From: a virus
Lineage: Duplodnaviria; Caudoviricetes
IMG/VR virus record: IMGVR_UViG_2788500332_000006
Coordinates: 32,979-96,978 of that record
Strand: one strand, 5' to 3'
DNA: 64,000 bases
Below, piece by piece: positions 42,920 to 63,389 of this stretch (the first letter of the stretch is position 1; the number at the start of each line of letters is the position of its first letter). The notes below the pieces were generated by a model. The model made no database searches. It saw nothing but the letters and a program-made list of their open reading frames with translations, and was not told the DNA's origin. The position numbers and the translations under genes are program-made.

Positions 42920-44536
42920 TCAGAACTCCAAAATGATGATGATGCCCGGCGAACCGTTACCGCCAAAGGTGCCGTTCGCCGTGACCACGCAGGCTCCGCC
43001 GCCGCCCGCGCCGTAACCAGTCGCCGCACCTCCGCCATAGGCTCCAGTGCCACCGCCACCACCAAGGCCGCCGAATCCGAGGCCAAGCGGGCCATCTCCG
43101 CCGCTGCCGCCGTGTGACTGTTCAGAGCCGGCCACGTAATAGGAATAATCCCGTGGTCCGCCCGGCAGGTTGACCAAACCGCCACTGCCAACAACCGGAG
43201 CAATGGTGGCGCTGCCCGGCCCGCCGGAGCCGATATATGTATTGCCGCCGATTACGAGCGAGGATGCACCACCATTGTTACCGTGAGTGTTGGACACGCC
43301 GGTGCCACCAGCGCCAACCGTGGCGGCATAAGCCATACTGTCGTCAACGTCCGCCACGGCTATCGTGGCGCCGCCACCAAAACCACCATTTCCAATACCG
43401 ACGGAACTCCGGCCCTGTCCTGCACCGCCGCCGCCGCAGACGATGGCGAGCCACTTGGTGACGCCAGCGGACGGAGTGACGTTGCCGGAAGCGGTCACGA
43501 CTCGGACGTTCTTCAGGCCTCCACCAGCAAGAGCATTCTTCACGAAGGCTGTGGTGGCCAGCTTGGTGGAGACGTCTCCGGAGGCGGGGGTTGGGGCTGA
43601 GGGGGACACTGAGAAGGCCATGCTGCGGCCTGCCCGCGAAACCGAGTAGACAGTTCCCAGGGAGTCCCCTGCGTCATCAAAAGCATCGAACTGGAAGTTT
43701 GACCCGGTGTTGCCCCCATCCTCCGGCGTCGCGTTTGCACGCATAGACCACCGAGCCAGGCCATTGGTCATCCACATAACCCAGCGGTTGAGGCCCGGCG
43801 CGTCATTGACGTAGATGTCCTTGCCAGTCAGTTGGCCTGCTGCGCCATACTTCGCAGGGGCGCTCGCTGTCCCGTCGTCCTTGAACGCGGTCTTCAGGTA
43901 GTAGGAGGTCGGATCGAACAAGGCGGCCGCAGCGGCACTCGCCGCCGCCTCCGCTGCCTTGCCGGTCGCCACGCCAGCCGCCGTCGCCGCGGTATTGGCG
44001 TGCCCCTCGGCCGCGACGACCGCGCCGGCGATGCCGGCCACCGTCTCGATGTCCTCGGCGATCGGCACGAGGGCCAGCATCTGCGGCTGGATGTCCGACA
44101 GCGCCAGCACCGCGCCGGTCAACCTGTCCACCGACACCGACGAGGTCACCGGCAGCACCACGGCGCGCGCCACCTGCTCCTTGAGTTGCAGCGACATCTG
44201 CGTCTGCAGATCGATCGCCCGTTCGATGGTTTCGGCGAAATAGGCGCCCTGGTTCTCGAGGTCGATGTCCTGCATAAACGGCACGTTGAGGATCAGCGTC
44301 ACAAGGTAGCCGGCCTCATAGGCCAAGGCCGTCTTCACCGCCCCGCCGCCGCTGTCGCCGACACCGGACACCGTATAGTCGGTGCCGAGCGCCAGCGCCG
44401 TCTCGGTGCCGTCCGGCGCCGTCAGGATGACGCGGATGTGCGCCGCGTCGTAGATCCTGAATTCGTAAGGAAAACTGGTCGTCGCCCCGTTGCAGGCATA
44501 GGGGCCGGAGCGGTTCGCTTCGCTCGCAATGGTCAT
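42920..44536 (-). CDS. Tail fibre protein with Gly-rich C-terminus
   Basis: N-terminal YACNGATTSFPYEFRI..GTDYTVSG attachment domain; STKLATTAFV; GGGGAG repeats. Confidence 0.88.
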   Translation of the reverse strand: MTIASEANRSGPYACNGATTSFPYEFRIYDAAHIRVILTAPDGTETALALGTDYTVSGVGDSGGGAVKTALAYEAGYLVTLILNVPFMQDIDLENQGAYFAETIERAIDLQTQMSLQLKEQVARAVVLPVTSSVSVDRLTGAVLALSDIQPQMLALVPIAEDIETVAGIAGAVVAAEGHANTAATAAGVATGKAAEAAASAAAAALFDPTSYYLKTAFKDDGTASAPAKYGAAGQLTGKDIYVNDAPGLNRWVMWMTNGLARWSMRANATPEDGGNTGSNFQFDAFDDAGDSLGTVYSVSRAGRSMAFSVSPSAPTPASGDVSTKLATTAFVKNALAGGGLKNVRVVTASGNVTPSAGVTKWLAIVCGGGGAGQGRSSVGIGNGGFGGGATIAVADVDDSMAYAATVGAGGTGVSNTHGNNGGASSLVIGGNTYIGSGGPGSATIAPVVGSGGLVNLPGGPRDYSYYVAGSEQSHGGSGGDGPLGLGFGGLGGGGGTGAYGGGAATGYGAGGGGACVVTANGTFGGNGSPGIIIILEF

Positions 44537-44584: not shown

Positions 44585-47500
44585 TCACCGCGCCCCGAAC
44601 ACATGGCCGATCGCCACGGCTGGCGGGGCGTCCGTCAGGAGTGCGGCGGCCATCATGGTCGATCGGACGGCCTTCGCATCGCCCCTATCGCCTGCGGATG
44701 TGGCCAGCCCGGCCCACATCGCCGCCCGCGCCGCGCTGTCCGGCGAGGCCGGCGCGGGGGCGCCGATCGGGCCGAAGCCGGCATCGCCGCCGCTTCCGGG
44801 CGCCCGCAGCACCGCCGTCTCGCGGGCGAACAGCAGGGCCGCGGCGAGGGCGCGCGACAGGTTTGCCGGGTTCGATGCGGCGGGAGAGGCCATCAGCGCC
44901 GCGACCAGGGTCCGGACGGACGCCGCCGCCTTGCCGCCCGGCGCGCGCCCCGCATCCGCCCGCCGCGCCGCGTCGTCGCCCGCCGCCACGGCCCGCGCCT
45001 CGTCGCCGGACCGGTCGAGCTGCCGGCGATAGCCGGAAAGCCACGCCGGCATGTCGGCGAGCTGCCAGCGCGCGCGCCCGATCAGCCAGCCGGCCAGGGC
45101 ATCCGCCCCGCCGTCGCCGCGTTTGGCCGCCGCCGCCCGCCGCCCGGCCATCAGGCCCGACCGGCCGGCGATCCGGTCACTGACGCCGGGGGCGAACGTG
45201 TCCCCGAGGCCGGCCGCGAAATCCGCCCCCGCCGCCGCCATCGCGCCGGCCAGCCCCGCCGCGTCGACCAGCGCGGCGGCGAGATCGCGGGCCAGCCGCT
45301 CGGCCGCCGGATCGTCCATCTCGGCCGCCGCCATCCGCTCCAGAAAATCCCCGGCGCGCAGGTCGCCGGCCGCCGCGTCGTCGATGAAGGCGGCGAGCGT
45401 TTCGAGGTCGCCGGCCCGGCCGCCCCCGGCGAAGGCGTCGCGCAGCGCCGGCTGCCCGATCAGCCGCCCGGCGTTGGCCAGCGGCTCGGACAGTTCGAGG
45501 TCGGAGAGCAGCCGGTCGACGTAGGCGTGGAAGGCGGCGAGGTCGAGACTGAGGCCGCCGCCCGCCCCGCCACCGCCTCCGGTCATGGCCGTGGCCTTGG
45601 CGAACCGGCCGGCCCGCACCGCCGCGGCGAGGTCGCCCGCGCCGGCCAGCGGATAGAAGCCGCCCTTCAGCGCGACGCCGCCGACGGTCACCGGCCGCGC
45701 CCCGACCCACGCCGGCGTCCCGCCGGTTGCCCGCCGCTCGCGCGCGGCGATCTCGCCCCGGAAGCCCTCGAGATAGTCCCACACCGCCGCGATGAAGCGG
45801 GCGTCGCGGCCGTCGAGCGCCGCCAGGATCGGCGGCACCGCCTCCGGCGCCAGCCCCGCCTCGCCGCCGGCCAGGCGCGCATGGCCGGCCTCGTTGCCGG
45901 CGTTGAGCGCGATGGCGATCATCTCCCAGCGCGACAGCGACCGCCCCAGCCCCGGCAGGAAGCGGCGCACGCCCATCGCCCGCCGCTCGTCCGCCGCGTA
46001 GGGCGCGTAGAGCGCCGCGATGTCCGCCGCCGCCCGCTGCCGGCGGCGACCGAGCGCCTGCCTCGCCGCATTGATCGACGCGACCAGCCGGCGGACCGAC
46101 GGCGCCCCGTCGCCGGCGATCTCGCGCAGCAGCTCGGCGGCGGCGCGGCCGGGATCGACGGGGCGAGCCCCCGTCCCACCCTCCGCGCCGCCCGGCGCCC
46201 GCGCCACGGCGGCCACCGCTTCGGCCACCGCCGCGCTCAGGCTTTGCCGCCCGCGCGCGTCCACCAGCGCGTCGTTGCGCCCCATGGCGTGTTCGATGTT
46301 CTCGAGGCTGGCGACCACCGCGCGGAGCTCGCCGGCCGGCAATTCGCGATAGGGCCGCCCCTCGCCGCCGGCCAGCACGGCGTCGGCAAGCGCCAGCTCG
46401 TTCTCCCGGCCGGCTGCCGTCATCGCCTTCGCGAAGGCGGCCACGGCGCCGCGCGGCGCCGGGTCGCCGGGCTTGCGGAACTCGAACCGGTCGAGGATGG
46501 CGTCGATGGCCGACCATCCGTCGATGCCCTGCGTCACCTCCGGCCGGTCCGGCCGGTCGAGACGGCGCACCGTCCGTTCCGCCGCCTGGAGATCGTCGGC
46601 GATCCGCCGCGCCTCGGCGTAGAGCGCCAGGTTGAGAAGCTGCCGGCGCCGGGCGTCGTAGAGCTTCTTGCTCCTTTCCCCCTCCTCGCCGGAGGCGGAG
46701 AGCTTCGCCGCTTCCTCGCCGGCCCGCCGCTCGGCGGCCAGGTGGCGCCGGGCGTCGACGGCGTCGCGCACCGGCGTTCCGGCCAGCGCCGCGCGGGCGA
46801 AATCCTGCGCCGCCGCCGCCGTCAGTGGCCTGTCCTCGCCGGCCGGGCCGGCCAGCGCCCGGAGCTCGGCGGCCAGCCAGTCGGCCATCCGGCCGCCATG
46901 GATGGCGGCGAGCGCCTTTTCCGGCAACGTGCCGTCGACGAGCGGGTCGCCATGGCGCTCGATCATCAGGCGGCGGGCCTCGGCGGCGATCGTCGCGCCG
47001 CGCCTCGGCGCCAGCGCCATCGCCTGGATCATCTCGTCGCCGCTCGAAAAGCCGAACAGGCCGGCCGCCTCGTCGGGGTCGACGCCGCCCTCGGCGGCAT
47101 AGGCGGTGGAGCGCCCGCGCGGCAGCGCCGCCAGCACCGCCTCGCCATAGCGCTCGACCAGGATCGGCCGCGACAGCCTGAGCACGGGCAGCGGGCGGGG
47201 CGCATCGCCCAGCCGGCGGCGGTTGGTCAGCCACTCGGTCGCCCGATAGACCGGCAGCGCGTCGATCCGCCCCTCGGCCTCGCGCGTCGCCGCCGCCAGC
47301 CCGTCGCGATACCATTTTTGGCGCGCCGCCCGCACCGGCCGCATGATCGCCTGGGTCAACCGCTCCTCGGCCTCGGCTTCCGCCGCCGCCCGCAACGCCC
47401 CGAGATCGGCCGACACCGGACCGAGATCGCCGGCCGCCCGGCGCGCTGCGGCGATTTCGGCGTCGGTGGCCAGCAGCCGGTCGAACACATCGCCCACCTC

Positions 47501-47899
47501 GGGCGCGACCGCCACACCGAGCCCGCGCATCGTCAGGTAGGCCTCGATCAGCCAGGCCCGGAAACGGCGGAACGCCAAGCGCGGCCCGGCCGGCAACGCC
47601 TTGCCGTCCAGAAGATAGGCGGCGAAGGCGCGGGCGAACCGGTCCTCGTGGTCATCGGCCTCGCCCCACCAGCGGGACAGCGCCTCGCCATCGGCTCTTG
47701 CAGCCGCATCGCCGTGATCGCCCGTAGTCGTGAGAAGTGTCAGGAACAAGCGAGCGCCATCGCGCAGGAGTCCCGGAAGATCGCCAGCAGCGAACAACCG
47801 CTTCAGCGCCCCGGCCCCTCCGGGTGCTTTGTCATCGTCAGGGCCGGGGTAAAGGCGGGGGGCCTCCTCGCCTGTCGTCCGAGGGGAACTGATCGTCAT
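44585..47899 (-). CDS. C-terminal portion of a large ejection/internal virion protein, degenerate
   Basis: HEDRFARAFAAYLLDGK..FRRFRAWL..VFDRLLATD; IAIALNAGNE; LKGGFYPL; start re-picked at ATG 47899 (GGAGA RBS). Confidence 0.7.
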   Translation of the reverse strand: MTISSPRTTGEEAPRLYPGPDDDKAPGGAGALKRLFAAGDLPGLLRDGARLFLTLLTTTGDHGDAAARADGEALSRWWGEADDHEDRFARAFAAYLLDGKALPAGPRLAFRRFRAWLIEAYLTMRGLGVAVAPEVGDVFDRLLATDAEIAAARRAAGDLGPVSADLGALRAAAEAEAEERLTQAIMRPVRAARQKWYRDGLAAATREAEGRIDALPVYRATEWLTNRRRLGDAPRPLPVLRLSRPILVERYGEAVLAALPRGRSTAYAAEGGVDPDEAAGLFGFSSGDEMIQAMALAPRRGATIAAEARRLMIERHGDPLVDGTLPEKALAAIHGGRMADWLAAELRALAGPAGEDRPLTAAAAQDFARAALAGTPVRDAVDARRHLAAERRAGEEAAKLSASGEEGERSKKLYDARRRQLLNLALYAEARRIADDLQAAERTVRRLDRPDRPEVTQGIDGWSAIDAILDRFEFRKPGDPAPRGAVAAFAKAMTAAGRENELALADAVLAGGEGRPYRELPAGELRAVVASLENIEHAMGRNDALVDARGRQSLSAAVAEAVAAVARAPGGAEGGTGARPVDPGRAAAELLREIAGDGAPSVRRLVASINAARQALGRRRQRAAADIAALYAPYAADERRAMGVRRFLPGLGRSLSRWEMIAIALNAGNEAGHARLAGGEAGLAPEAVPPILAALDGRDARFIAAVWDYLEGFRGEIAARERRATGGTPAWVGARPVTVGGVALKGGFYPLAGAGDLAAAVRAGRFAKATAMTGGGGGAGGGLSLDLAAFHAYVDRLLSDLELSEPLANAGRLIGQPALRDAFAGGGRAGDLETLAAFIDDAAAGDLRAGDFLERMAAAEMDDPAAERLARDLAAALVDAAGLAGAMAAAGADFAAGLGDTFAPGVSDRIAGRSGLMAGRRAAAAKRGDGGADALAGWLIGRARWQLADMPAWLSGYRRQLDRSGDEARAVAAGDDAARRADAGRAPGGKAAASVRTLVAALMASPAASNPANLSRALAAALLFARETAVLRAPGSGGDAGFGPIGAPAPASPDSAARAAMWAGLATSAGDRGDAKAVRSTMMAAALLTDAPPAVAIGHVFGAR

Positions 47900-48250: not shown

Positions 48251-48727
48251 GTGGAAATCAACAGAGAGCAATCAGCCGCTCCATCAACGAAATTGGGCGA
48301 GCACGCCCGTTTGCCACAGGCTCAGATGAAAATGAATCAGGACGATCAAGAAAGAGAGAGAGAAGCCAAATCAATTAAGGGCAAAAACCGGAATAAATGC
48401 CTTCTGATTTTGTTTCTCACCTCTCTTGTTTTGGCTAGCATAAGTGTAGAGATCGCCGATATCGCAAGCCCAGGAACTTATTCCTCCTCAACAGCGTATT
48501 ACTGGGGAGGAATAACCGGGGCCACGATCACGACATACATCTTTTCCTTGTTCTTTTTTGCAATAGTCAGGTTGATCCGCGGCGGCTCCACGCCGTTAGC
48601 AGGGCTCGGCACAGGCATCGCTGCTGCACTCCTGCTGTTCGGCATTACGACTCACAAGGACGCAAACCTCATAGACAAGAGTTATGAAGCGACCCATGCT
48701 GAAGACGCTGGATCATCGCAGCGTTGA
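48251..48727 (+). CDS. Three-TM membrane protein, paralogue A
   Basis: NKCLLILFL..SLFFFAIVRL..AGLGTGI; true start probably 48326/48332. Confidence 0.8.
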   Translation: MEINREQSAAPSTKLGEHARLPQAQMKMNQDDQEREREAKSIKGKNRNKCLLILFLTSLVLASISVEIADIASPGTYSSSTAYYWGGITGATITTYIFSLFFFAIVRLIRGGSTPLAGLGTGIAAALLLFGITTHKDANLIDKSYEATHAEDAGSSQR

Positions 48728-48795
48728 AACAAATGCGTTAGGCCTCACAGCCAGACAGCTCTCGGTCTTGCGTCCGGATTGGCCTAGAAGGGACT

Positions 48796-51708
48796 TCAAG
48801 GAGAAATCGAGCGCATGAGCGTATCTTTGTCTGTAGAAGGCGCCGGCCCCTCGGAAAGCTCCTTTTGAGTTTTCCAGAAGGCGCGCTTCCTTTCTTCCTT
48901 TGCAACCTTGTGTTGTCTTGAGGCCTCTCTCTTTTTATCGGCGTTATTCTGCCGGATCTTCGCACCATCCGCCTGCTGTTGAGCTTCTGCTTCCCTGCGC
49001 GCTTCGTTCCTTTTCTGCTGTTGTGTTTTTCCTTTCTCGTGTGTTTGGCGAGAGGAGTCGGAGGGCGGATTAGTGCTTCTAGTGTCAAGCGAAGGACCAT
49101 TGGCGGACGTCGGCGAAGGTTTGTCAGTAGGGACACCAGTGGAGGCTGCGACTGGTTCGGTGCCAGTATCGAGTTTGGCCCTCCATTGGGGAGCCTCCTT
49201 TGTTATCTCCTCAAGCGCTTTGCGAACTTCTTCGTTGTATTTCTCGGCCACTGCCCATGGCATATCGGACGGATCGAGGCGAAGATGCCTCAGCATGGCC
49301 TCCCCCTCCTTCATTCCAGCGAAATCCACGAGATAACTGGCGGTGGGAATACGCAGATCGCCACCAGTCGATACGGCTGTGTCGAAATCCGATATGGGAG
49401 CTCCCTTTATTTTTCGGAAAACCTCGCGCGGCTCTGCACCGATCTCCTTCATGCCAACGAAGAATTCATCCGGAGATATATAAAGATATTCGGCCGGCTC
49501 CCCCTTTAACTTCTCTCCAACGAAATCGCGAAGCACTTCAAGATCTTGTCCGCTTGCCCTCCATGAACTAGATTCGCTCGAAATACTCTTCAGAGCAGTA
49601 TAATTTCGACCACTTGCATGTACTTGTCCGATAACATTACCAAAATAGGAAGAAATAGCTCCACCTAGAAAGGCCCCCCCTGTCCCCTCCAGCCATTCTT
49701 GATTTTTATCAAACTTCCACCACGAAATTAAATTTTCCCCGGTCTTCTGAGTTGCCTGCTGCACCCCTTCCATGCCAGCGGTCAACAGTGTGCCCGCCGT
49801 TCGACCAAGAGCGTTTTTGACGAATGGGATTTTCGCCACCTTTTCCGCGAAGGGAAGCGAGGAAAGCGCACCCCATCCCGCATTCCACCAACCGGCTTCA
49901 GTTTGAACGACCTCGCTGGCTCCGGCCTCGCGCGCCTTGGAGACTCCAGCCCCTCCCGAGCGCAAAGCCCCGTAAAGAGCCAATCCAATCGCGCCTGCAA
50001 TTCGTGGAATGCTCAAAGCCGCCAGGATATCAGGAGTGGCCTCTCCGGCCAGGCTAGCTAAGCTATTTTCCTGACCGGGCGTGGCAGCCCATTCCGTTCG
50101 AGCGTAATTTTGCCAATACTCTCCGGACGCTTGATGCCTTCGAGCGGAGCTTTGAGTGTCAAGCCTCACTCCATTCAAATATTCAAGTACTTTTTTCGGA
50201 TCTTTATGCTCGAAAACAACTGAATCTAGCTCTCTATACAAATCTTTGTAATAGTAGAAATACTGCTGACTCGCCATTACACGAAGTTTATCATAATCTT
50301 GAATTTTTGCATAAGCGATTGCATTAGCAATATCCTCTATTTCTCTAATTTTTTCAGGAGACGGCTCGGAAAGCTGTCCAATAAATTCTTCGGCTTGCCC
50401 ATACGAAGTTATAGCCCATCTAATTAATCCCTTCGCGTATTCGGGAGAAATGAGTTCGGAATTGGCCGCCACCGTCCAACTTCCAATCGGAATGGGCCCG
50501 TTTGGCGCAGTGGGCTTCGGCGCTTCAAAAACGGCACCATCGTAGGGAGCCGGTGGGCGAAACATGTTCAAGGGATCTGTGAGCGACGGCAGGGGATAGG
50601 CGTCATACCGCCCCCGTTCCCAGGCCGTCGCGTCGGGACCGGTATAGGCTTCATTACCGGCTGGAGCGCCAGACGGTTGCCCCGCCGAAGCGAACAGGGC
50701 TCGCAACTCCCTCTCCGCAGCCTTTCGTCCGACAAGACCGTAGGCCATCTGGTCAACCAGGCGATGAGCCTCATGCCGTCGAATGCCCGGATGCTGATCG
50801 ATGCTGAGGTGAAGATAGTACAGAGAGCCTTGGTTGCCGCCGGCAACCGCACTGATGAGCTTGTCCTGCTCTGGAGAAATAGCGACGGGAGAACCCCGCT
50901 CCGGAGCTTTTGCCTCAGTCCCCCCTACCACTGGCGCCGTGGCACCCGGCTTCACCCCTTCAGATGAAGTCGAAGGAGGCACATTGATCTGTTCCGTTCC
51001 TGCTGGAGCGGCACCCGGCACGGCAGCGGTGGGTACGCCCGCATTGTTCTGCGGTGCCGAAGGAGAGGCGACCGGCCCCGATACCGCCGGAGCACCGGCG
51101 TTAGGCACGTCCGCGTTTTCCGGTGTCTCGGCGGGAATGCTGTCTGTCACGCCTGCACCAACGGGCGGATTGGCGGCGGCGGTTGGCGCCTCCATCGGGC
51201 GCGGAAGTGGAACGGGAACAGGCTTTCCCGAATTCGCCGCAAGAATGGGCGGAGAAACCTCCGCGTCCCCGATCGGCGCCGAGACCGCCGGGATGGAGGC
51301 TGAAGCCAACTGCAATCCCGGCCAGAACGCTCCGCCTATCGGGCGACGTGACGCATCGATGGCCTTGTTTGCCGCCTGCTCGATAGCCACGAGCGAGGGG
51401 TAGTGTTCCCTGGCGACGGGCGGGTTTTTGGGGTTGCTCAGATAGTCGAACAGCTTGGGCGCGCTGGTTCGAAGCGCGTCCATCTCCGCATCGTCGACGA
51501 CCTTGCAGAACGCCTCGCGGTTGTCTCTGACCACCTCCTCCGGCGCCGGCTTGTTTCCCGTCAGGTCGGCCACTTGCTCGGAGAGCAGGGCGTCCGTGCG
51601 GGGCGTGCCGTCGTCTTCCAGCTGGGCCACGGTCTGGAACTGCTTGCGCGCGTCGTCGTCCCGCCGCTGCCTACCCTTGTAGGCGTCGTAATTGTCAGGG
51701 GTGAGCAA
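48796..51708 (-). CDS. N-terminal portion of a large ejection/internal virion protein with mosaic centre
   Basis: TGGDLRIPTASY..HLRLDPSDM; TTG 51708 after GGAGA (supported by the duplicate at 53189); Pro/Ala linker; AT-rich centre. Confidence 0.7.
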   Translation of the reverse strand: MLTPDNYDAYKGRQRRDDDARKQFQTVAQLEDDGTPRTDALLSEQVADLTGNKPAPEEVVRDNREAFCKVVDDAEMDALRTSAPKLFDYLSNPKNPPVAREHYPSLVAIEQAANKAIDASRRPIGGAFWPGLQLASASIPAVSAPIGDAEVSPPILAANSGKPVPVPLPRPMEAPTAAANPPVGAGVTDSIPAETPENADVPNAGAPAVSGPVASPSAPQNNAGVPTAAVPGAAPAGTEQINVPPSTSSEGVKPGATAPVVGGTEAKAPERGSPVAISPEQDKLISAVAGGNQGSLYYLHLSIDQHPGIRRHEAHRLVDQMAYGLVGRKAAERELRALFASAGQPSGAPAGNEAYTGPDATAWERGRYDAYPLPSLTDPLNMFRPPAPYDGAVFEAPKPTAPNGPIPIGSWTVAANSELISPEYAKGLIRWAITSYGQAEEFIGQLSEPSPEKIREIEDIANAIAYAKIQDYDKLRVMASQQYFYYYKDLYRELDSVVFEHKDPKKVLEYLNGVRLDTQSSARRHQASGEYWQNYARTEWAATPGQENSLASLAGEATPDILAALSIPRIAGAIGLALYGALRSGGAGVSKAREAGASEVVQTEAGWWNAGWGALSSLPFAEKVAKIPFVKNALGRTAGTLLTAGMEGVQQATQKTGENLISWWKFDKNQEWLEGTGGAFLGGAISSYFGNVIGQVHASGRNYTALKSISSESSSWRASGQDLEVLRDFVGEKLKGEPAEYLYISPDEFFVGMKEIGAEPREVFRKIKGAPISDFDTAVSTGGDLRIPTASYLVDFAGMKEGEAMLRHLRLDPSDMPWAVAEKYNEEVRKALEEITKEAPQWRAKLDTGTEPVAASTGVPTDKPSPTSANGPSLDTRSTNPPSDSSRQTHEKGKTQQQKRNEARREAEAQQQADGAKIRQNNADKKREASRQHKVAKEERKRAFWKTQKELSEGPAPSTDKDTLMRSISP

Positions 51709-51956
51709 AGGCCTGTCTCCCAAAAGGATCAGGCCAGACGCTAAGTCGTGGTGGGTTTCCGTACTGATCGGCAACGCCGATCGATACGATCGGCCGATGG
51801 GAATGCCATGGGCATTGGGGTGCAGGTCCCCGTAGTCGCCCTAATTCTAAAAAGAGTTGCAGACCGCTGCCGACTCGCCCACCAAATTGGCGCATTCGCA
51901 ATGACCGACAATGAACCTGCGATGTCTGTTTAAAGGCTTGAGCGAAAGGTAAGAAA

Positions 51957-52280
51957 ATGCTGCGAGACTATAGTCCTCAAGAGAAAAGGAGCGGCTTTTG
52001 GAAGAGCATCGCTATCCTGTTTCTTCTTTCGGTCGTCGGCAGCCTTGCGCTCAAGCTGCACAGAGGCGATGAAGTTGGCCACTTCCGCGGCGCCCAGGGA
52101 CGATGGGTCGGAGAACTTCTGGGTGAGGCCGGCATCCCTTTCTTCGCCGGGCTGCTTGTCTTCGGTATCGTCAGGCTGATGCGTTGGGCCGACGCTCCCA
52201 AGGCCGGACTGATATCGGGCATCATCACCACACTGATCTTTTGCGGCTTGCTCTATCGCGCCGATATGTTGTTCCCTTAA
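51957..52280 (+). CDS. Three-TM membrane protein, paralogue B
   Basis: ILFLLSVV..WVGELLG..FGIVRL..PKAGLISGI. Confidence 0.75.
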   Translation: MLRDYSPQEKRSGFWKSIAILFLLSVVGSLALKLHRGDEVGHFRGAQGRWVGELLGEAGIPFFAGLLVFGIVRLMRWADAPKAGLISGIITTLIFCGLLYRADMLFP

Positions 52281-52507
52281 GAGTTTGCTCGAAACTCGCT
52301 GGTATCAGGCCAAAAAGTTGCAGTGGGCCGGCGGCGTCCGTCCTGTTCCTGACATCAACAATGGAACTCAGCCGGCACGCCTTCGTCTTGTCGTCCCGCG
52401 TCATGCCTTTCCTGCAGGATCAGGACCTGCTGGCCGCCTGCCGCAAAGAGCTTCTGGAATGGGCGAAGACCAATATCAAGGTTGAGTGACAGCGCGGGAG
52501 GTAAGAT

Positions 52508-52849
52508 ATGCAGCAGGATGGAACGCAAGAGGCGATTGAACAGGTCGCGGCGTCAAAAAGCAACGGCAGGAACAAATGCATGCTCATCCTGCTCGGCTTG
52601 TCTCTGGTCATAACGGTGGTCATGGCCATAGCGACCGGCCAGAGCATTCCGGACCGTCCTTTTGGAATATCCGGGTTCATCGGCGAGCAACTCGGGTTTG
52701 CGCTGGGCCTGTTTCTTCTTTCGCTGCTCTTTTTCGCTTTGGTGCGACGCAAGCGCAAAGACAATGTGCCGACGGCAGGGCTCGGCACCGGCATCGTTTG
52801 CATGCTCATCTGGAGCTATTTCATCTACGTTGGCGCCACGAGCCCATAA
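52508..52849 (+). CDS. Three-TM membrane protein, paralogue C
   Basis: NKCMLILL..FIGEQLG..SLLFFALVRR..PTAGLGTGI. Confidence 0.8.
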   Translation: MQQDGTQEAIEQVAASKSNGRNKCMLILLGLSLVITVVMAIATGQSIPDRPFGISGFIGEQLGFALGLFLLSLLFFALVRRKRKDNVPTAGLGTGIVCMLIWSYFIYVGATSP

Positions 52850-53189
52850 AGTGCGTCTCCCTCACACTGTCACCAACCCAGAAGTCGTCCCTGGGGATGG
52901 CCGCGCCATCAGGATCACCCAGATACGCAAATAGCTTGGGCGCGCTGGCTCGAATTGCGTCCATTCGCGCGTCGTCGGCGATCCGGTCGAACAACTCCCG
53001 ATTGTATTTGACCAGTTCAATCGGCGCCGGCCTATTCTGGGTCACGGCGGCAACTTCGTCGGAAATCTGTGCATCGCTGGCGATCGAACCGATCTTTTCC
53101 AGCCGGGCCACAGCCAGGAATTGCTTGCGGGAGTCGTCGTTCCGCCGCTGCCTACCCTTGTAGGCGCCGTATTCGTCAGGGGTGAGCAA
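52821..53189 (-). pseudogene. Truncated diverged duplicate of the 5' end of 48796..51708
   Basis: LTPDEYGAYKGRQRRNDDSRKQF..DDARMDAIRASAPKLFAYL vs LTPDNYDAYKGRQRRDDDARKQF..DDAEMDALRTSAPKLFDYL; ~75 bp of upstream DNA also duplicated. Confidence 0.85.
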
Positions 53190-53477
53190 AGACCTGTCTC
53201 CCGAAAAGGATCAGGCCAGACGCTAAGTCATGGTGGGTTTCCGTGCTGATCGGCAACGCCGATCCGTCCGGCGGCCGATGACATGGGGATACCGAGGCTC
53301 CGTCTTCCGGCTTTCTATCCTCTGTATTCACCACGACTCTAGATCTGGTTGCAGTCCATTGTCGACTCGCCTGCGGGAGAGGCATAGTCGACGAGAAACT
53401 GAGATCCGCGCGCCCGATCCTCTTGCTGTCCGTTTGATTCTACTGGTCAGCTAGACGGTTTTGGATATGAGGTTAAA

Positions 53478-53870
53478 ATGCAGAAAGACACTCCACAAGC
53501 GATTGAAAACGCCAAAACGGCCAATAGAATCGCAAGGGATAAATGTATCCGCAAGCTATTCCTGCTTTCCTTGGCAGTCACGATTGTCGTTACAATCCTA
53601 CTGGGTTTTAAAGTACCCAATCAGGATTTCGGCTCTGCAAGGTATATCGGAAGTATGATTGGAAGCTTTATCGTTATATTCCTCTCTTCGTCCCTTTCCT
53701 TTGCAGTGGTCCGGTTAGCCCGGGACGCGTCCGTGCTGACGGCAGGGCTGGGAACCGGCGTTGTTATCGCGCTCTTGATGTCCGTCAACATGTACTATTC
53801 TGCTCTACATGACTTGGAAGAGCATTTTAGCGCGGCTCCAGTCGAAGATATCGAGTCGATGCAGCGTTGA
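53478..53870 (+). CDS. Three-TM membrane protein, paralogue D
   Basis: DKCIRKLFLLSL..YIGSMIG..FAVVRL..TAGLGTGV; ends EDxxSxQR like paralogue A. Confidence 0.8.
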   Translation: MQKDTPQAIENAKTANRIARDKCIRKLFLLSLAVTIVVTILLGFKVPNQDFGSARYIGSMIGSFIVIFLSSSLSFAVVRLARDASVLTAGLGTGVVIALLMSVNMYYSALHDLEEHFSAAPVEDIESMQR

Positions 53871-54236
53871 AGCCGGCTCGAAGATTGGGCATCCCGTCCA
53901 TCGGGAAGGATCAACGGGCGGCGCACACCAACCATCGGCATCGCCCGCCCGGCTAACGATCCGGTCGCTGACAATGCGTTTCGTTTAGCCCTTACGACCG
54001 CGTCCGTTACGGTCGCGTTGAACATGTCTGCGGACACTTCCGCTCGCTTCCTAACTAAGCCTTTTGAATATTTGGGTGAATTTCGTTTCTCACGCACCGT
54101 CGTCCGGAGGGGACCTCCGATGACTTTTTGTTTTGGCGTTCAATGCCTTCATCCGCCCATTTCGGCATGGCGGAGATAAATCAACGTAGCGCGTCTGAGA
54201 CATCACGCCCTGAGCCTTCATCGAGAAGCCCCGCCC

Positions 54237-54360
54237 TCACGCCCCCTGCGCCTGCCGGAACGCCTGATACTCCCGCGCCACCTCGCCGTCTGTCGGCTTG
54301 CGGTCAGGTCACGGTTAGGAATTGCCTGCGCGTGTCGTCTTCCCGCCGCTGCCTACCCTT
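54237..54360 (-). pseudogene. Fused relics: third copy of the ejection-gene 5' segment (KGRQRREDDTRRQFLTV) and second copy of the 55165-gene 3' end (RKPTDGEVAREYQAFRQAQGA*)
   Basis: Direct DNA similarity to ~51630-51680 and ~55165-55230. Confidence 0.85.
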
Positions 54361-54395: not shown

Positions 54396-54959
54396 CTACC
54401 CATTGCCAACGATTACCACCACCCCACGCTGTAGAAACTCCATCTGCAGTTTGACCGTTCCTATGAGCAGGATGCCAATGACGATCAGCAGGGTGTTTCC
54501 GGCCAGTCTCTGAAAGTCTAGTCCCTTTGGCTCCTGCGGTCGCTTGATAAGCAATGCCAAGTTGGCAATCGGAATGAACCCCAAAAACCAATAGGTGCGA
54601 TGGCCATAAGCATCCATGGCCCGGGCGGCGGATGCTAGTCCGAGCAAAATGCCCATCGCGACAAGGCAGCCATAGGTAGCCAGCACCCATAGCGGGAAAA
54701 AATTACTCTTCGGAAGAAAGAGTAAGGATACAAATATCAGTTTCAGGCTTACTAAGGCGAGCAGAAAGAATAATGATATTGCGAAAAAATAGCCGGCTCG
54801 ACCGAGCTTGAACTCTGGCTTTGCAAAATGCAGGACAGCCGCTGCGGAAATAAAAGGCACTCCGAAGATTGGGATAAGGAAGGAGCGGGAGAGAAAAAAT
54901 AAGGCCTTTGCGGCCAGCCAATATATAGGAGAGAGGATCGATTCCACCAGCAGGTCCAT
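54396..54959 (-). CDS. DUF805-like membrane protein, probably truncated
   Basis: LGRAGYF..SAARAMDAYG..WFLGFIPIANL; AT-rich. Confidence 0.65.
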   Translation of the reverse strand: MDLLVESILSPIYWLAAKALFFLSRSFLIPIFGVPFISAAAVLHFAKPEFKLGRAGYFFAISLFFLLALVSLKLIFVSLLFLPKSNFFPLWVLATYGCLVAMGILLGLASAARAMDAYGHRTYWFLGFIPIANLALLIKRPQEPKGLDFQRLAGNTLLIVIGILLIGTVKLQMEFLQRGVVVIVGNG

Positions 54960-55164: not shown

Positions 55165-57231
55165 TCACGCCCCCTGCGCCAGCCGGAATGCCTGATACTC
55201 TCGCGCCACCTCGCCATCGGTCGGCTGGCGGCCGAGTTCCTGTTGCAGTTGGCGGGCGATGCTGTCGCGAAGGTTGGGCGAGATGTCGCCAAATCGCACA
55301 GGCTTGCCGGCGCCGCTCTCCGCTGCCGGGCGCGGCGTGATGTAATAGCCAAGGATGTGCGGGTTGATCATCTTCTGGAAGTCGGCCGTCGTCGGCCTGG
55401 TCGAAGGGTTGGCCTTGCGGAAGGCGGCAAGGTCGTCGTAAAGCGCGTTCTGCACCTGGGCCAGCAGTTGGCGCTGTTCGGCGCTTTCCCCGCCGCCGGA
55501 ACCTATCGCGCCCGCCTCTTCCAGCCGTGTCTTCGCCAAGTCGAAGGCGCTGGCGAGCTCGGCGCCCTGGTCGCGCGCCTTGCGGCTGTCCTGGCCGATC
55601 GCCGATTGCGCCGCGGCGAGCGCCTTGAGATCGGATCCCTCGAGGCGGTCGCGATAGTCGTTGAGATCGAGCCGCGCGAAGTCCTCCGGCCGGCTGGCGG
55701 CGTAAAGATATATGTCGCGCAAGAGCACCTCGTCGGTGGCGAGCGGGCCGGCCAGCGTTTTCGCGGCATAGCTGCGCGCCGAGGCCACGGCATCGCTGCC
55801 CGCCCCCTGCCGGACACTGAACGGCACCTGGTCCGGCGCCACCCCGTCGCCGACCTGCCGCCACAGCTCGGCCTTGGCCGCCATCTGCTGCTGCAACTCC
55901 TGCTGGCTCTGCTGTTCAAGCGTGCCGAGGATCGCCTGCCGGGCAATGTCGCGGCGGCGCGGATCGGCAATCGCCGCGAGATGCTTGTCGATCTGCCCGG
56001 ACGACGGCGCCAGCGCCCGCGCGGTGACGCCGTCGGCGGCGGCCACCACCGAACCGCCCGCCCCGCCGACCGGCATGCGCAGGCCATAGCGTTCGGCATT
56101 GCGCCGCGCCCAGTCCTGCAACTGCAACGGAGCGACGGAAAGGCTTTCGCCTTTGTAAGTGAGATCGACCGTTCGCCCCGTGCCGTCCGCTTCGCTTTCC
56201 GGAAAGCGGATGCCAATGTCGTCGCGCAACTTCGGGGGGGCGTCGTCCATAAGGGCGGAAAGGTTGGTAGCGAAGTTGGAATCGAGGCGGAGCACCTTCC
56301 CTGCGTCGTCGCCCGTGATGCGGCCAAGCAGGAGAGCTCGCTCCGGCGTCGGCCCGGCACGCCCCGTGGCGTCGGCGCCTGCCTCCGCGAAAAGTGGTTT
56401 CCCGGCGTCGGCCGGCTTTCGCTTTCTCTCTGCGAAGGCGACGCCATCCTGCCATGTTGTTTTGTCGAGCGCCGCCTCGCCGACGGTGGCCTTCAGCCTG
56501 TTCTGGGCGTCGGTCAGCAGGAAGCCCTTCTGGCTTTCGATATCGGCGGCCGCGCCGATCGGATCGGTTTCGGCCTTTCTGACGATGCGGTCCTCGTACA
56601 CGCCGGAAATCAGCTCTGCCGACTGGTCGGCGAGATCATCGGCATGCAATCCTAGAAGACCGCCGATATTCTGAAGCTCCGTGAAACCGGCGATCACATC
56701 CAGCTTCTCGTCGTTGGTATCCCAGCTCGCCGCCGCATTTTCGCGGAAGGTATCGACGCGCGCTTTGCTGGTCTGCACCGTCCACACGCCGCGCTGCGTC
56801 ATGGCATGCCTGGAGGCTTCGTCCATCAGGTTGTTGATCGTGACGTTGCTGGCGTCCCAGTATTTTCTCTGCGCCAATGGCGACAGGCCGGCGGCCCCGT
56901 CTTTCGCCAGTTGCAACAGGCTCGCTTTGTATCCCTCCAGCCCCTCCACCGCTGCCCGGCCACTGGTGCCCATATAGCCGCTTTTGCCGTAGCTGAGTTC
57001 GCGCGCACCACCCATGAAGGTGTTGTTGCTGTCCTTGGCCTCGTTGGTGGCGTCGAGATCCTTCACCTCGGCCACCGCCTGCCCGATATCGATCAGCCCC
57101 CGCCCCACGCTGCCCAGCGCCTCGCCGATGCCGGAGCCGAACATCTCGCCGGTGGCGCGGGTGGTGTCGCGGAAATTGAGGCCGGGGTCGAGGCGAATGC
57201 CACGGTCTTCATAGGTCGGCACAACGGGCAT
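55165..57231 (-). CDS. Internal virion/ejection protein (T7 gp15 position)
   Basis: MPVVPTYE N-terminus, helical Ala/Gln-rich body, synteny; GAGGA RBS. Confidence 0.75.
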   Translation of the reverse strand: MPVVPTYEDRGIRLDPGLNFRDTTRATGEMFGSGIGEALGSVGRGLIDIGQAVAEVKDLDATNEAKDSNNTFMGGARELSYGKSGYMGTSGRAAVEGLEGYKASLLQLAKDGAAGLSPLAQRKYWDASNVTINNLMDEASRHAMTQRGVWTVQTSKARVDTFRENAAASWDTNDEKLDVIAGFTELQNIGGLLGLHADDLADQSAELISGVYEDRIVRKAETDPIGAAADIESQKGFLLTDAQNRLKATVGEAALDKTTWQDGVAFAERKRKPADAGKPLFAEAGADATGRAGPTPERALLLGRITGDDAGKVLRLDSNFATNLSALMDDAPPKLRDDIGIRFPESEADGTGRTVDLTYKGESLSVAPLQLQDWARRNAERYGLRMPVGGAGGSVVAAADGVTARALAPSSGQIDKHLAAIADPRRRDIARQAILGTLEQQSQQELQQQMAAKAELWRQVGDGVAPDQVPFSVRQGAGSDAVASARSYAAKTLAGPLATDEVLLRDIYLYAASRPEDFARLDLNDYRDRLEGSDLKALAAAQSAIGQDSRKARDQGAELASAFDLAKTRLEEAGAIGSGGGESAEQRQLLAQVQNALYDDLAAFRKANPSTRPTTADFQKMINPHILGYYITPRPAAESGAGKPVRFGDISPNLRDSIARQLQQELGRQPTDGEVAREYQAFRLAQGA

Positions 57232-59365: not shown

Positions 59366-59512
59366 CAGGACCTCGGGCAGAACGGAGCGAACGGCCGATA
59401 TAGGGTCTCGCCAGCAAACTCCACGAGCGAGCAACGCCGTATTCACCCCTATACCAAATAGGGTTGCATCAACGGGCGACTAAAGGATGATTGTTGAGCG
59501 TAGCGGCGAGAT

Positions 59513-59959
59513 TCAGTTCGGCGCTCTTCTCACGCACTTCACTTCGTCTGGTGACTTATACGGGATATCTGGGGTCTTTTGATCTGCCGTGCAAATTGGC
59601 TTTTCGACAAATGAATACCCTTTTGCCTGTAGACACCTCCTCACGAAGCGGAATCTTAATCCTTGATTGACGTCATAATTGTATGCTGAAGCCGGGATGT
59701 TGACGCCGCCGAAGGTGTTGCATGCAACAAAGCCCCCAACATTATTGCACTGGACGGTGGGTGGGCTAGAATATCCTGGATTGATTTGCGTGGCGATGTT
59801 CTGTGGGATTTCCTTAAACGAAGCGATCTCACACATATCAACATCTCTCTGTCTTTCAGCCCCCAACGTGCCTGGCTTAAAGATAATGGTAGCAGGCCCG
59901 GTTTGGCAGGACACAAGGAAAAGACCAGCCAAAGCCGGGATAAAAAACACCGCACGCAT
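59513..59959 (-). CDS. Cys-rich lipoprotein (moron-like)
   Basis: Lipobox LVSC; several further Cys; AT-rich. Confidence 0.75.
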   Translation of the reverse strand: MRAVFFIPALAGLFLVSCQTGPATIIFKPGTLGAERQRDVDMCEIASFKEIPQNIATQINPGYSSPPTVQCNNVGGFVACNTFGGVNIPASAYNYDVNQGLRFRFVRRCLQAKGYSFVEKPICTADQKTPDIPYKSPDEVKCVRRAPN

Positions 59960-60054: not shown

Positions 60055-60258
60055 CAAACTGCCCGCCCATATCCCAAGCCATCCGGCCCGTGCCTTGGCC
60101 TGCTCAGCCGCATAACGTCACGTGCTGTACTTAGGCCAGTCGATCGCGGAGCCGTTGGCGACCAGCCACATGTCACCGGTTGCGCGGGTGTTGTCGCGGA
60201 AGTTCAGGCCGGGGTCGAGCCGGACGCCTCGTTGATCATAGGTCGGAACGACGGGCAT
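60055..60258 (-). pseudogene. Chimeric relic: 30 codons of the gp15-like 5' end fused to a thermonuclease C-terminal fragment with an in-frame stop
   Basis: MPVVPTYDQRGVRLDPGLNFRDNTRATGDM|WLVANGSAIDWPKYST*RYAAEQAKARAGWLGIWAG. Confidence 0.8.
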
Positions 60259-60267: not shown

Positions 60268-60843
60268 TTACTGGTACCAAGCTTCACCGTAAATATTGCC
60301 GATGCCGTAGTTCTTACTAGTGCCTGAGCCGGTCAGGATCGATCCCATCTTCACCGCGTTCGAATACGCCCCGCCAAACCCACTGGCCATCGAGCCGAAT
60401 GCGCCGAGTATCCCCGCCGTGCGGCTGTTCTTCGCCTGCATGTCGTAGAGGGCGCTCTGATTGTGGTAGCTGACGGCCTGGTTGCGCACGTCGTCGTAAT
60501 TCCGATAGGCGTTGGTGCGGATGGTCAGGGCATCGATGGCGCCTTGCTTGGCCGTATCCACCATCAGGTCGAGCGGCGTGCCGAACGTCGTGTCGACGCC
60601 GTTGGCGGCCATGGCGGCCTGCTGCTTGGCCATCAGTTGGCTCGTCATCGCCTTCTGCTTCTGCTCCTCGCGCGTGCCGGCGTCGAGCACGTTCTTCGCC
60701 TGCCGGTCGGCGAGCTGGGCGTTCTGCCGCTGCACTTCGGCGTTGTATTTGGCGGCCTGAGACTGAGCATTGGCGCTGGCGATCTGGCCGGCTCCGCTCA
60801 GGAGCGTGCCGCCGATCATCAGCGCGGTTCCCAATTCACACAT
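60268..60843 (-). CDS. Small internal virion/ejection protein (T7 gp14-like)
   Basis: MCELGTALM hydrophobic N-terminus, QQAAMAANGV..GTPLD, synteny. Confidence 0.8.
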   Translation of the reverse strand: MCELGTALMIGGTLLSGAGQIASANAQSQAAKYNAEVQRQNAQLADRQAKNVLDAGTREEQKQKAMTSQLMAKQQAAMAANGVDTTFGTPLDLMVDTAKQGAIDALTIRTNAYRNYDDVRNQAVSYHNQSALYDMQAKNSRTAGILGAFGSMASGFGGAYSNAVKMGSILTGSGTSKNYGIGNIYGEAWYQ

Positions 60844-61303
60844 CGCGGCGCCTCCTCAATTCGAACAGAACAAACGGGTGACCATGGATATCGATGTCGC
60901 CGAGAAACGCGGCGCCCAGCCAGCCGAGCCAGCGGATCGACGCGGCGTTGTCCCGGTCCACCACGTTGCGCAGCACCTCGTGGCGGGTGAACAGGCCGGG
61001 GAGCCCCTCGGCCGTCGCCCTCAGGAACCAGCGCCAGTTTCGGGTGATGGCGTCCGTGCCCAGGAGCCAAACGCCGCCGATGCCGGCGAGAACGTTGAGG
61101 TCGCCGACGCCGTACATGATCTCCGGCCGCCCATCGATCAGCACGGTGAAGGCGGTCGAGTTGTCCATCGACCGGCGCAGCGCTGCCACCGGCCCGAGCC
61201 GGCCCGACCGCCACACCTCCGCCACGTCGGCCGCCCGCATCCGCCTCGCGATCGATCGGCAGTGCTTGCCGCGCGCCGGCACGATTTCCACCTCAACGGC
61301 CAA
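60836..61303 (-). CDS. T7 gp13-like GNAT-fold protein
   Basis: MRAADVAEV..VWLLGT..LRNVVDRDNAASIRWLGWLG. Confidence 0.8.
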   Translation of the reverse strand: MAVEVEIVPARGKHCRSIARRMRAADVAEVWRSGRLGPVAALRRSMDNSTAFTVLIDGRPEIMYGVGDLNVLAGIGGVWLLGTDAITRNWRWFLRATAEGLPGLFTRHEVLRNVVDRDNAASIRWLGWLGAAFLGDIDIHGHPFVLFELRRRRDV

Positions 61304-63389
61304 GCGTCACCTCCGGCATGATGGCGAGGATGGACATCGGCAGCGGGTCGAACTGCTTGACGTGGAGGCCGCCCGAGCGGTTCCAGTCGGCCGGCGGCGT
61401 CATGTCGATGTCGCCGGTGTAAAGGCCGATCGCCTCGTTCCACGCCTCGGTGGAGCGCTGCTTGAATTCCACCATCTTGTCGCTGTCGCGGCCCTCGTCC
61501 TTCGGGCCGACGAAGATGCCGCGCGTCTTCTCCACCCTGAGCACCACCTTCGACACCGACTTGAAGCGCCCCTGCACCGTGCCGAGCTCGTTCAGCATGC
61601 CGAGATCGAGGTCGAGCGTCTGCAATGCGGCAGCATAGGGCAGGCCGACGTGGATCTTGCCGGCGGCCACCGGCAGCGCCACCGCGCCGCCTTCCACCCT
61701 GAGGCCGCGCACCACGTTGCCGTCGGCGAGCGCCACCACCTCGCACCCCTCGAGGTGCGACAGGCCGGAAAGATGGCTCACCGGCGCGCCGGCATAGGTC
61801 AGGCCGCAATCGACGAAGAAGGCGTCCTCGACATGGTCGAAGGCCCGGCTGTGCAGCCGCTCGACATAGCGCCTCGCCACGCCGTCGATCGTCCGGTTGA
61901 CCACGAAATAGGGCACGTCCTCGCCGTTCTCGGCGATGCAGGTCACGTCCTCGAAAGAAGCGTCCGCGCCGCTCTCGTGCCGCGTCCAGGCCCACACCTC
62001 GTGCTCCTTCATGTAGGTGAGCGACACCAGCGAGCCGTCGTCGAGCACCACCCAGACGATGGAGCTCGGCGCCTGCGCGTAGGCCCAGGCCTTGATCGAC
62101 CGGTTCTCGAACAGGTGGCGGCTCATGATGGTCAGGTCCTTGCCCACCCAAGCGTCGTCGCCGTAGCTGTAGGAGAAGTCGCGGATCACCCCGCCCGAGC
62201 GCTGGGCGAACAGCACCGTCTCGCCGACGGCGATCGGCTGCACCGCCGCCGCGCCGCGATAGCCCTGGTTGGCGATGACGATGGCGCTGGGCGTGATGGC
62301 GTCCGACGCCGAGCCGCCGGTCACCACCCATTCGGCCGACGAGGTGAGCAGCAACAGGCCGTAGCGGGCGGCCAGCATCGAGCGGACGATGTTGACCTGC
62401 CGCGCCCGCATGCGGAAGGTGATGGCATCGCTGTCCTTGGCCGGCGAGGCGTAGCCGAAATTCTCGTAGTTGGCGGTCTGCGAGAGATAGACCGCCTGCG
62501 GCTCGCTGTCGGTGGAGGCGAGCGCCAGCCGCTGCTGGATGAAGGTGACGGCGCGCGGATAGTTGCCGGCGCCGGAGAACGGGTTGCGGCCGATCTGCGG
62601 CCCGTCCGAGGTGTCGGCGGTGATGTTCTCGTCGTCGAGGTAGAGATCGGTGGTCGAGCCGATATAGCCGAACGAGCCGTTGGAGAATTTGTAGACCACG
62701 TATTTCGACGCGCCGGTCACCGCCGTCCACGACACGCGGTTGATGCCGCCGTCGACGGAAAGATCGTTGACGCAGGAGGCCTCGCCGGACGGCAGGCTTT
62801 CCTCGCCGGTGGCCTCGCTGACCGCCGCCACCTTGTAGCGATAGGTGTGCGCCTTGTAGCCGGTCTGGCCGGAGGTGCTGCTCTGCACCGCCGCCGTGAT
62901 CGTGGCGGGCGCCGTCATGGCCGGCGCGAATGTCGGTTCGGTCAGCGTCCAGTTGTTGTCGGCGTAGCGGGAAAGCTTCTTCACCGGATGGTCGGGATGG
63001 ACGATGTACATCACGTCCGCTTCCTGGGCGAACACCAGTTCGTCGAGATCGCCGGAGGCATAGGGCGAGGCGAGCTCGTAGACGTCGCCGCCGGCGGCCA
63101 GGATCAGCCCGCCGTTGCGCCAGAAGCGCAGCGAGCCCTCGCCGAACTCGATCACATAGGCCTGCGCCTCGTTGAACTGGAAGGGGATCAGCCGCGTCCT
63201 GTCGGCGCTGTTCTTCACCTCGCCGACGAACTCCAGGCCGGCGCGGTTCGATGCCCCGCCGTGGGCGTGGATGAACAGGTTGAGCGCCGTCTTGAGGCCG
63301 ACCGAATAGTTCTTGGTGTCGACGCGCGCCCAGAGGGCCGGCGACAGCTCGCCGCCGACGAAGGCCGGCTGATAGGCCCGGAGCGTCAT
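61293..63389 (-). CDS. Tail tubular protein B/nozzle (T7 gp12-like)
   Basis: QPAFVGGELSP..RLIPFQF..AQEADVM..YPRAVTFIQQRL..PLPMSILAI. Confidence 0.9.
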   Translation of the reverse strand: MTLRAYQPAFVGGELSPALWARVDTKNYSVGLKTALNLFIHAHGGASNRAGLEFVGEVKNSADRTRLIPFQFNEAQAYVIEFGEGSLRFWRNGGLILAAGGDVYELASPYASGDLDELVFAQEADVMYIVHPDHPVKKLSRYADNNWTLTEPTFAPAMTAPATITAAVQSSTSGQTGYKAHTYRYKVAAVSEATGEESLPSGEASCVNDLSVDGGINRVSWTAVTGASKYVVYKFSNGSFGYIGSTTDLYLDDENITADTSDGPQIGRNPFSGAGNYPRAVTFIQQRLALASTDSEPQAVYLSQTANYENFGYASPAKDSDAITFRMRARQVNIVRSMLAARYGLLLLTSSAEWVVTGGSASDAITPSAIVIANQGYRGAAAVQPIAVGETVLFAQRSGGVIRDFSYSYGDDAWVGKDLTIMSRHLFENRSIKAWAYAQAPSSIVWVVLDDGSLVSLTYMKEHEVWAWTRHESGADASFEDVTCIAENGEDVPYFVVNRTIDGVARRYVERLHSRAFDHVEDAFFVDCGLTYAGAPVSHLSGLSHLEGCEVVALADGNVVRGLRVEGGAVALPVAAGKIHVGLPYAAALQTLDLDLGMLNELGTVQGRFKSVSKVVLRVEKTRGIFVGPKDEGRDSDKMVEFKQRSTEAWNEAIGLYTGDIDMTPPADWNRSGGLHVKQFDPLPMSILAIMPEVTLGR

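Follow-up and report, generated by a model that had tools for sequence, protein, structure and literature searches.

SieA of phage P22 is an inner-membrane protein of 162-164 amino acids (aa) with three predicted helices that blocks DNA injection, and mutations that escape it map to the ejection proteins gp16 and gp20 (PMC10883804). Three types of SieA are known, sharing about 25% identity (<30%), with a conserved motif that is predicted to be cytoplasmic (PMC10883804). In the P22 sequence, which we retrieved, sieA lies on the opposite strand, 23 nucleotides (nt) after ejection gene 16. Other membrane proteins or lipoproteins that block DNA entry are T4 Imm, HK97 gp15, T5 Llp, phi80 Cor and TP-J34 Ltp. 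Here we describe four genes, A to D, that occupy a position similar to that of sieA in a T7-like prophage. They are found in a stretch of 64,000 nt, hereafter the window, corresponding to positions 32,979 to 96,978 of the Caudoviricetes record IMGVR_UViG_2788500332_000006. Their products belong to a rare and unnamed family, represented by four anciently diverged copies encoded opposite the ejection genes, and by analogy with SieA they probably keep related phages out.

Gene content and order identify the region as the internal-core (DNA-ejection) block of a temperate, T7-like podovirus, or prophage, whose host Pleomorphomonas is cultivable and non-pathogenic. The window stops inside this prophage, at position 64000. 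Followed along the minus strand, the order is nozzle, a weakly Gp13-like open reading frame (ORF), gp14, cargo, a gp15-like gene, the array region, gp16a, gene A, gp16b, fibre and lysis genes. All the components of a T7-like internal core block are present, namely the nozzle and gp14 domains, a gp15-sized gene, a giant gp16-like gene and a fibre gene. The T7 gp12-like tail nozzle (698 aa; 61293..63389, minus strand) matches phrog_376 (E 3.5e-209) and PDB entry 8ck1, 'Tail Nozzle' (E 7e-137), and scores 33.8 bits against Pfam Phage_nozzle (cut-off 27). The gp14-like internal virion protein (191 aa; 60268..60843, minus strand) scores 56.2 bits against T7_gp14 (cut-off 27), and upstream of it a 155-aa ORF (60836-61303, minus strand) weakly matches Phage_T7_Gp13 (E 0.004). 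As for the gp15-like internal core protein (688 aa; 55165..57231, minus strand), it matches phrog_10475 and has, as in T7, gp14 on one side and the giant protein on the other; its ORF is open from 57411, and the conserved start is MPVVPTY. Related loci, numbered L001 onwards, were gathered with the gp15-like alignment, and the gp15-like protein is 47-65% identical to its counterparts in L001 and L002 (alignment A3).

The gp16-like polyvalent internal protein comes in two halves. The first, gp16a (970 aa; 48796..51708, minus strand), matches positions 274-589 of phrog_9880 and starts at TTG 51708, preceded by the ribosome-binding site GGGAGA; the second, gp16b (1104 aa; 44585..47899, minus strand), matches positions 1025-2018 of the same family (E 1.4e-116), and its ORF is open from 48271. 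For the putative N-terminal LPD22 domain (PF18834), the full gp16a scores 17.8 bits and a truncated copy described below 21.9 bits, both under the gathering score of 28.6; the gp16a homologues of L001 and L024 have precomputed PF18834 hits. The distant relative L026 has the same gene order, with T7_gp14, then the gp15-like gene, and one unsplit 2225-aa PBECR3 polyvalent protein. The gp16-like protein is thus encoded by two genes in the window (44585-51708) and in most relatives and by a single gene in L026 (491-7168), and both in the window and in L023 the point of the split is precisely where gene A is located. Beyond gp16b lies the tail fibre gene (538 aa; 42920..44536, minus strand; phrog_1640 and related tail-fibre families, Pfam Gly_rich_2), followed at 40360-42076 by lysis genes for a DUF7940/holin-like protein, a lysozyme and a spanin-like lipoprotein.

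The block thus resembles the T7 core (gp14, gp15, gp16) in its succession of nozzle, gp13, gp14, a gene of ~690 codons, giant protein and fibre, and it resembles the polyvalent proteins of Iyer et al. 2017 (PMC5512222) in the LPD22 and PBECR3 domains that the giant protein has in relatives (L001 and L024 for the former, L026 for the latter). It differs from T7 in that no sequence match links its gp15-like and gp16-like proteins to the solved T7 proteins, gp16 is split and accessory slots interrupt the operon. A sequence search of solved structures with the gp15-like protein and gp16b returned nothing useful, and a tblastn search of isolated phages with the former gave only two cyanophage 'lysozyme' matches, over residues 31-227. 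Because no solved relative was found, the names gp15 and gp16 follow position and size only. Polyvalent proteins have been inferred to enter the cell together with the DNA (PMC5512222); this and the T7-like order make 'ejection gene' a reasonable label. That label, proposed in a first-pass annotation of the window, is borne out by the nozzle and T7_gp14 matches above the Pfam cut-offs. We rejected the gp15-like gene as a prophage end, as the nozzle and gp14 genes lie further upstream with cargo in between.

The four membrane-protein genes are all on the plus strand. Gene A (48332..48727) encodes 131 aa, or 133 from 48326, and converges on the gp16a stop, 69 nt away. Its ORF is open from GTG 48251, which the first-pass annotation had taken as the start; the ATG at 48326 or 48332 is preferred on account of the paralogue alignment and the called protein P0003. 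Gene B (51957..52280) encodes 107 aa and falls in a clade with P. oryzae and P. diazotrophica genes. Gene C (52508..52849; 113 aa), of the C-type clade, has a strong ribosome-binding site (GGGAGG), and its product is 76% identical to protein P0004 of Pleomorphomonas sp. PLEO. Gene D (53478-53870; 130 aa, ribosome-binding site GAGG) lies inside a cassette at 53474..54112.

That these are four paralogues with three membrane helices each had been seen at first reading and proved right. They are 28-42% identical in pairs, a family profile run on the 97-kb record matched exactly these four (E 1e-36 to 3e-46) with no internal stops, and three hydrophobic helices are predicted in A-D and in all family members. 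Shared motifs are K-C/S..L(F/L)..S(L/V), aromatic-x-G-x-x-x-G, F..VR..R and AGL(G/I)(T/S)G. Among the motifs listed earlier, F..VR and AGL(G/I)(T/S)G hold in all four proteins, while [ND]KC holds in three, B having WKS, and the glycine motif has been corrected to the form given here. An AlphaFold2 model built with 32 relatives has helices at residues 5-45, 54-81 and 91-118, with a mean pLDDT of 69.8. Helix 2, loop 2 and helix 3 are best conserved (mean pairwise identity 0.37-0.41 vs 0.24-0.28 elsewhere). Basic residues precede helix 1 and sit between helices 2 and 3, and the positive-inside rule suggests that the N-terminus and loop 2 are cytoplasmic and the C-terminus is outside. No match to A-D was found in Pfam, PHROGs or PADLOC, and in the ESM Atlas they match unnamed clusters only, with scores below 0.9. 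Foldseek gave no match with E below 0.18 in BFVD, where the nearest structures are three-helix holins (E 0.18-0.9, TM-score at most 0.47). In a maximum-likelihood tree, A-D fall in four separate, well-supported clades, each with orthologues from other prophages or metagenomes. Judging by this tree, the array is a collection of four old sequence types and not the product of recent duplication.

Very few proteins belong to the family, for which 5.8 billion proteins clustered at 90% identity yielded 21 clusters and 1.84 billion clustered at 50% yielded 23 representatives, and the family is tied to ejection genes. Each of the 12 distinct loci that have a complete gp15-like gene (the window, L001, L002, L003, L004, L005, L006, L007/L013, L014, L023, L026 and L028) also has one or more members directly after that gene, convergent with it on the opposite strand. 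All seven family matches in four whole Pleomorphomonas genomes are in the ejection-gene locus and nowhere else, and relatives that share only the gp15 N-terminal domain lack the family. Both the linkage and the variation in copy number proposed as checks in the first-pass annotation are therefore what we found. There are 1 to 4 copies per prophage, the window having the most. B, C and D occupy an accessory slot between the gp15-like gene and gp16a, A-type genes a further one between gp16a and gp16b in the window and in L023, and one P. oryzae C-type gene the slot upstream of gp15.

How four types came to be stacked can be read from the duplicated gene ends around them. Positions 51439-51799 and 52920-53280 are 79% identical, and 51625-51678 and 54307-54360 are 87% identical, in agreement with the earlier description of a full, a truncated and a relic copy of the 5' region of the same ejection gene. 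The truncated gp16a (LPD22) start (52821..53280, minus strand) is recognized by its identity to the full copy and consists of a leader (53190-53280), 90% identical to that of the full copy, and a 122-aa ORF (52821-53189), of which the first 270 coding nt are 75% identical. By its make-up, with promoter-like site and leader retained, it marks a recombination junction. Another one lies beyond gene D, where 54 nt left over from the 5' coding region of the LPD22 gene (nt 31-84; 54307..54360, minus strand) are directly fused to what remains of a gp15-like gene, its last 74 nt with the stop codon (54230..54303, minus strand; 90.5% identical to 55158-55231). This fusion of a gp16a 5' part to a gp15 3' end is, by its structure, the scar of an unequal crossover. 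One genome would have broken early in gp16a and the other late in gp15, joining two slots in tandem, and the four types would have been stacked by such staggered (unequal, illegitimate) crossovers between related phage genomes. In L005/L027, an independent junction has different breakpoints, with 63 nt of the gp16a start followed by ~330 nt of the gp15 end, and L002 also has a gp15 3' relic. Two larger staggered duplications, which may be assembly artefacts, were seen in other relatives: in L013/L007 (SVCO-16; 18884-21701), 263 codons from the start of gp16b precede a gp15 3' relic, a 399-aa gene of the m187 type described below and another gp16a start, and L014 (4584-8256) has an extra unit of family gene, gp16a and gp16b 5' part upstream of gp15.

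Read in this way, the duplicated gp16a starts are by-products of the stacking of whole inter-gene slots with their flanks. The first-pass annotation had instead proposed repeated capture of cassettes, each pairing an ejection allele with its blocker, and had described the membrane genes as convergent to copies of the ejection-gene start. The layout supports neither idea. The scars carry both gp16a 5' and gp15 3' ends, and B-D point away from the gp16a copies and towards gp15 or its relics; gene D in particular converges on the gp15 3'-end relic, since the gp16a relic at 54307-54360 runs straight into it. The LPD22 proteins beside A-type genes, moreover, are only 33-41% identical. It was correctly observed that decay affects the duplicated gene ends and spares the membrane genes.

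Exchange in the slot is also visible between close relatives. In place of the 639-nt D cassette (53474..54112, plus strand), made of gene D and its 3' region, P. carboxyditropha SVCO-16 has 4 nt, with flanks 99.8% and 95.5% identical to the window; copy number thus differs between near-identical prophages. Between B and C lies what remains, the 3' half, of a gene (52314..52489, plus strand) whose intact version in L001 (strain PLEO) encodes a secreted protein of 141 aa, and by blastn 52314-52848 is 76% identical to L001 9809-10338. The G+C content is 53-58% in the slot and the gp16a body (~53%), against 65-78% in gp15 and gp16b, which points to foreign donors for the former. Between loci, gp16a is 20-41% identical, as against 47-68% for gp15.

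Together with their opposite orientation, several signals suggest that the membrane genes may be expressed separately from the late operon. A promoter-like site, TTGTCG-N18-CATAGT (53359..53388, plus strand), lies 90 nt upstream of D and is conserved upstream of D-type genes in L002, L005, L006 and L023, and a site of the same pattern precedes gene A (48223-48252, plus strand). Sites of the general form TTGNNN-N16-18-CATAGT, which A and D have 80-90 nt upstream, number 3 in the window against an expectation of 0.19, for a motif chosen after the sequences had been viewed. Ribosome-binding sites are good for C and D, and a terminator scan detected a terminator-like hairpin after D (54105-54119). 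The late strand has its own signals. Both gp16a copies are preceded by a sigma-70-like promoter (TCGGCA/TCGACA-N18-TAGAAT/TAGAGT) and a ~130-nt leader (51709-51873; 53190-53365). In the full copy (51709..51873, minus strand), the promoter-like site is TCGGCA-N18-TAGAAT at 51844-51873, and this region is conserved across loci, the last ~60 nt of the leader being 85-90% identical where coding regions are at ~70%. The segments GGCCTG...CAGGCC could pair around the ribosome-binding site GGGAGA of gp16a. The leader has no Rfam match, and its interpretation as a promoter for a phage RNA polymerase was rejected, since the window has just two occurrences of the exact 25-mer, each upstream of an LPD22 copy.

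Our preferred explanation is that A-D provide superinfection exclusion in the manner of SieA, a reading by analogy to which we give an even chance. The proteins would be made in the lysogen from their own sigma-70-type promoters and would span the inner membrane, their N-terminus facing the cytoplasm and their C-terminus the periplasm. There they would act on the incoming gp14/gp15/gp16 conduit and stop related podoviruses from completing it, so that incoming DNA would stay out; several types per prophage would widen or harden the exclusion range. We favour this reading because of the T7-like core setting, the linkage, the P22-like layout, the signs of separate expression, and the recombination and copy variation. 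The comparison with P22 SieA made at first reading is a good one as regards size class, helix number, strand and position. Both families consist of small three-helix inner-membrane proteins, by prediction here, encoded by temperate podoviruses on the opposite strand, convergent and right after an ejection gene (in 12 of 12 loci for the present family), and both include several diverged sequence types. However, the family members are shorter (107-133 aa vs 162-164 aa), the neighbouring genes are of the T7-like core instead of P22 genes 7, 20 and 16, and a prophage may have up to four types with recombination scars, whereas P22-like phages carry one sieA. Imm, HK97 gp15, Llp, Cor and Ltp are likewise small phage envelope proteins directed against related phages, often encoded by morons inside structural clusters, but they belong to unrelated families with other topologies and to other phage types; to our knowledge, none of them forms a multi-type array between internal core genes.

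A number of observations weigh against exclusion. We found no homology to P22 SieA (hhalign probability 1.6%, 21 aligned columns), and the SieA motif FxRYPxEAxxFNK does not occur in the family alignment A6. The PADLOC search gave no similarity to a defence family, the confidence of the structural model is moderate with no significant structural match, and the promoter motif was selected post hoc. In P22, moreover, two very different SieA types shared one specificity, and therefore several types need not mean several specificities. Lastly, the presence of the family in all 12 relatives could equally point to a core phage function.

This ubiquity is what might be expected if the proteins served the lytic cycle of the phage itself, as a holin- or antiholin-like lysis timer or as a membrane factor that assists the ejection proteins or virion assembly, and the three-helix holins found as weak best structural neighbours go in the same direction. 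Yet the holin matches are not significant, the phage has a separate lysis block beyond the fibre gene, and A-D are antisense to the late operon; holins of classes I and III belong to a lysis cassette and appear late along with the endolysin, a pattern that the placement of the family inside the core-protein block does not fit. Copy numbers of 1 to 4, four old types in one genome and the clean loss of D from a near-identical prophage are better accounted for by an accessory role than by a core one, and we regard a lytic function as distinctly unlikely. An accessory role could also consist in lysogenic conversion of another kind, with envelope proteins that mask or alter a receptor or the envelope or that serve as a host fitness factor. 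The company that the family keeps is compatible with this idea: the slot also carries the m187 family and the 141-aa secreted protein, a lipoprotein gene lies in the neighbouring slot, the L001 slot encodes a protein of 142 aa that has both a signal peptide and membrane helices, and location on the opposite strand and low G+C would suit any moron. A general conversion gene would, however, not need a fixed place in the ejection block, kept in 12 of 12 loci including that of a distant phage, and our searches detected no enzyme-like or transporter-like similarity for the family. We therefore hold such a role to be doubtful.

The first-pass annotation had also considered immunity to an injected toxic domain. 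Such a domain would be part of the polyvalent protein, and the array would be a polymorphic toxin-immunity locus with orphan immunity genes. The high variability of gp16a between loci and the survival of several intact small genes next to decayed gene copies recall Rhs or CdiA loci, where recombination also builds arrays of diverged small genes near partial copies of a large gene. The resemblance ends there, and the features that define such loci were not found at the array. Pfam and PHROGs revealed no toxin domain in gp16a, the duplicated pieces are 5' ends with leaders and not C-terminal toxin tips, and the scars include the 3' end of the upstream gene, gp15, which exchange of toxin tips would not produce. 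In addition, the small genes are antisense to the large one and not immediately downstream of it, and A-type genes are better conserved than the adjacent gp16a alleles. Toxin immunity thus appears highly improbable.

If A-D do exclude superinfecting phages, they would represent a second solution to the task of P22 SieA, unrelated to it and found at the same genomic place in a different podovirus lineage. Blocking the ejection conduit at the inner membrane may then be a general strategy, and the position next to ejection genes could be used to find exclusion genes. The exclusion reading can be taken further, to a polymorphic archive in which each of the four or more old types would block a different set of gp15/gp16 conduit alleles, and staggered recombination between co-resident T7-like prophages would stack the types and thereby drive the extreme divergence of gp16a. 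We consider this extension unlikely; were it true, the locus would record an arms race like that of SieA, with readable recombination scars and a new protein family as its carrier. How a prophage gains accessory genes by unequal crossover is concretely recorded here, in the types that have been stacked, in D being cleanly present or absent, and in the fused scars.

The slot between gp15 and gp16a contains a second recurring family, on the same strand as the late genes. Its member in the window, m187 (187 aa, 4-5 helices; 54396..54959, minus strand), has homologues in L002, L005 and L007. The first-pass annotation had called this protein DUF805-like. The membrane protein is there, and its similarity to DUF805 (PF05656), which covers most of the profile, is below threshold (8-15 bits, E 0.028-5, for three of five members; gathering score 25.7). 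The family motif is AMDAYGHRTYWFLGFIP, and members are found at 3495-4730 and 5036-6235 of L005 and at 19927-21126 of L007. Some have an extra C-terminal domain of ~220 aa, with no Pfam match.

A second cargo slot separates gp14 from gp15 (57312-60258). Its gp14-proximal end is a relic of the first 91 nt of a gp15-like gene (60168..60258, minus strand), and it shares 83.5% identity with the starts of the gp15-like genes in L007 and L014. The lipoprotein noted at first reading is located in this slot: it is predicted to be 148 aa long (59513..59959, minus strand), with the lipobox LVSC detected by a regex scan, and has no Pfam or PADLOC match. The slot also includes genes for an IS30-type transposase (58315-59319) and a histidine phosphatase (57312-58001, plus strand). 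Its content differs in relatives, where L002 and L003 have an aas-like gene of 1130-1170 codons, TetR and HipA, and L007 has a gene for a 1220-aa protein with a gp15-like N-terminus.

On the other side of the block, an integrase gene (38811-40169, plus strand) adjoins a tRNA-Met gene (40184-40259, minus strand), and the two probably form the boundary between the T7-like element and a neighbour that encodes RecT, a helicase and DnaB. At its far left, the record (L020, L021) consists of a myovirus structural module that belongs to a different prophage. We rejected the idea that these genes are part of the same phage, as the terminase is absent from four genomes with the T7-like element and the tRNA-Met and integrase genes lie in between. 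Close to this boundary, a predicted lipoprotein of 117 aa with the lipobox LSGC (40360-40713) is encoded next to the lysozyme gene (40987-41577) and may be a spanin component.

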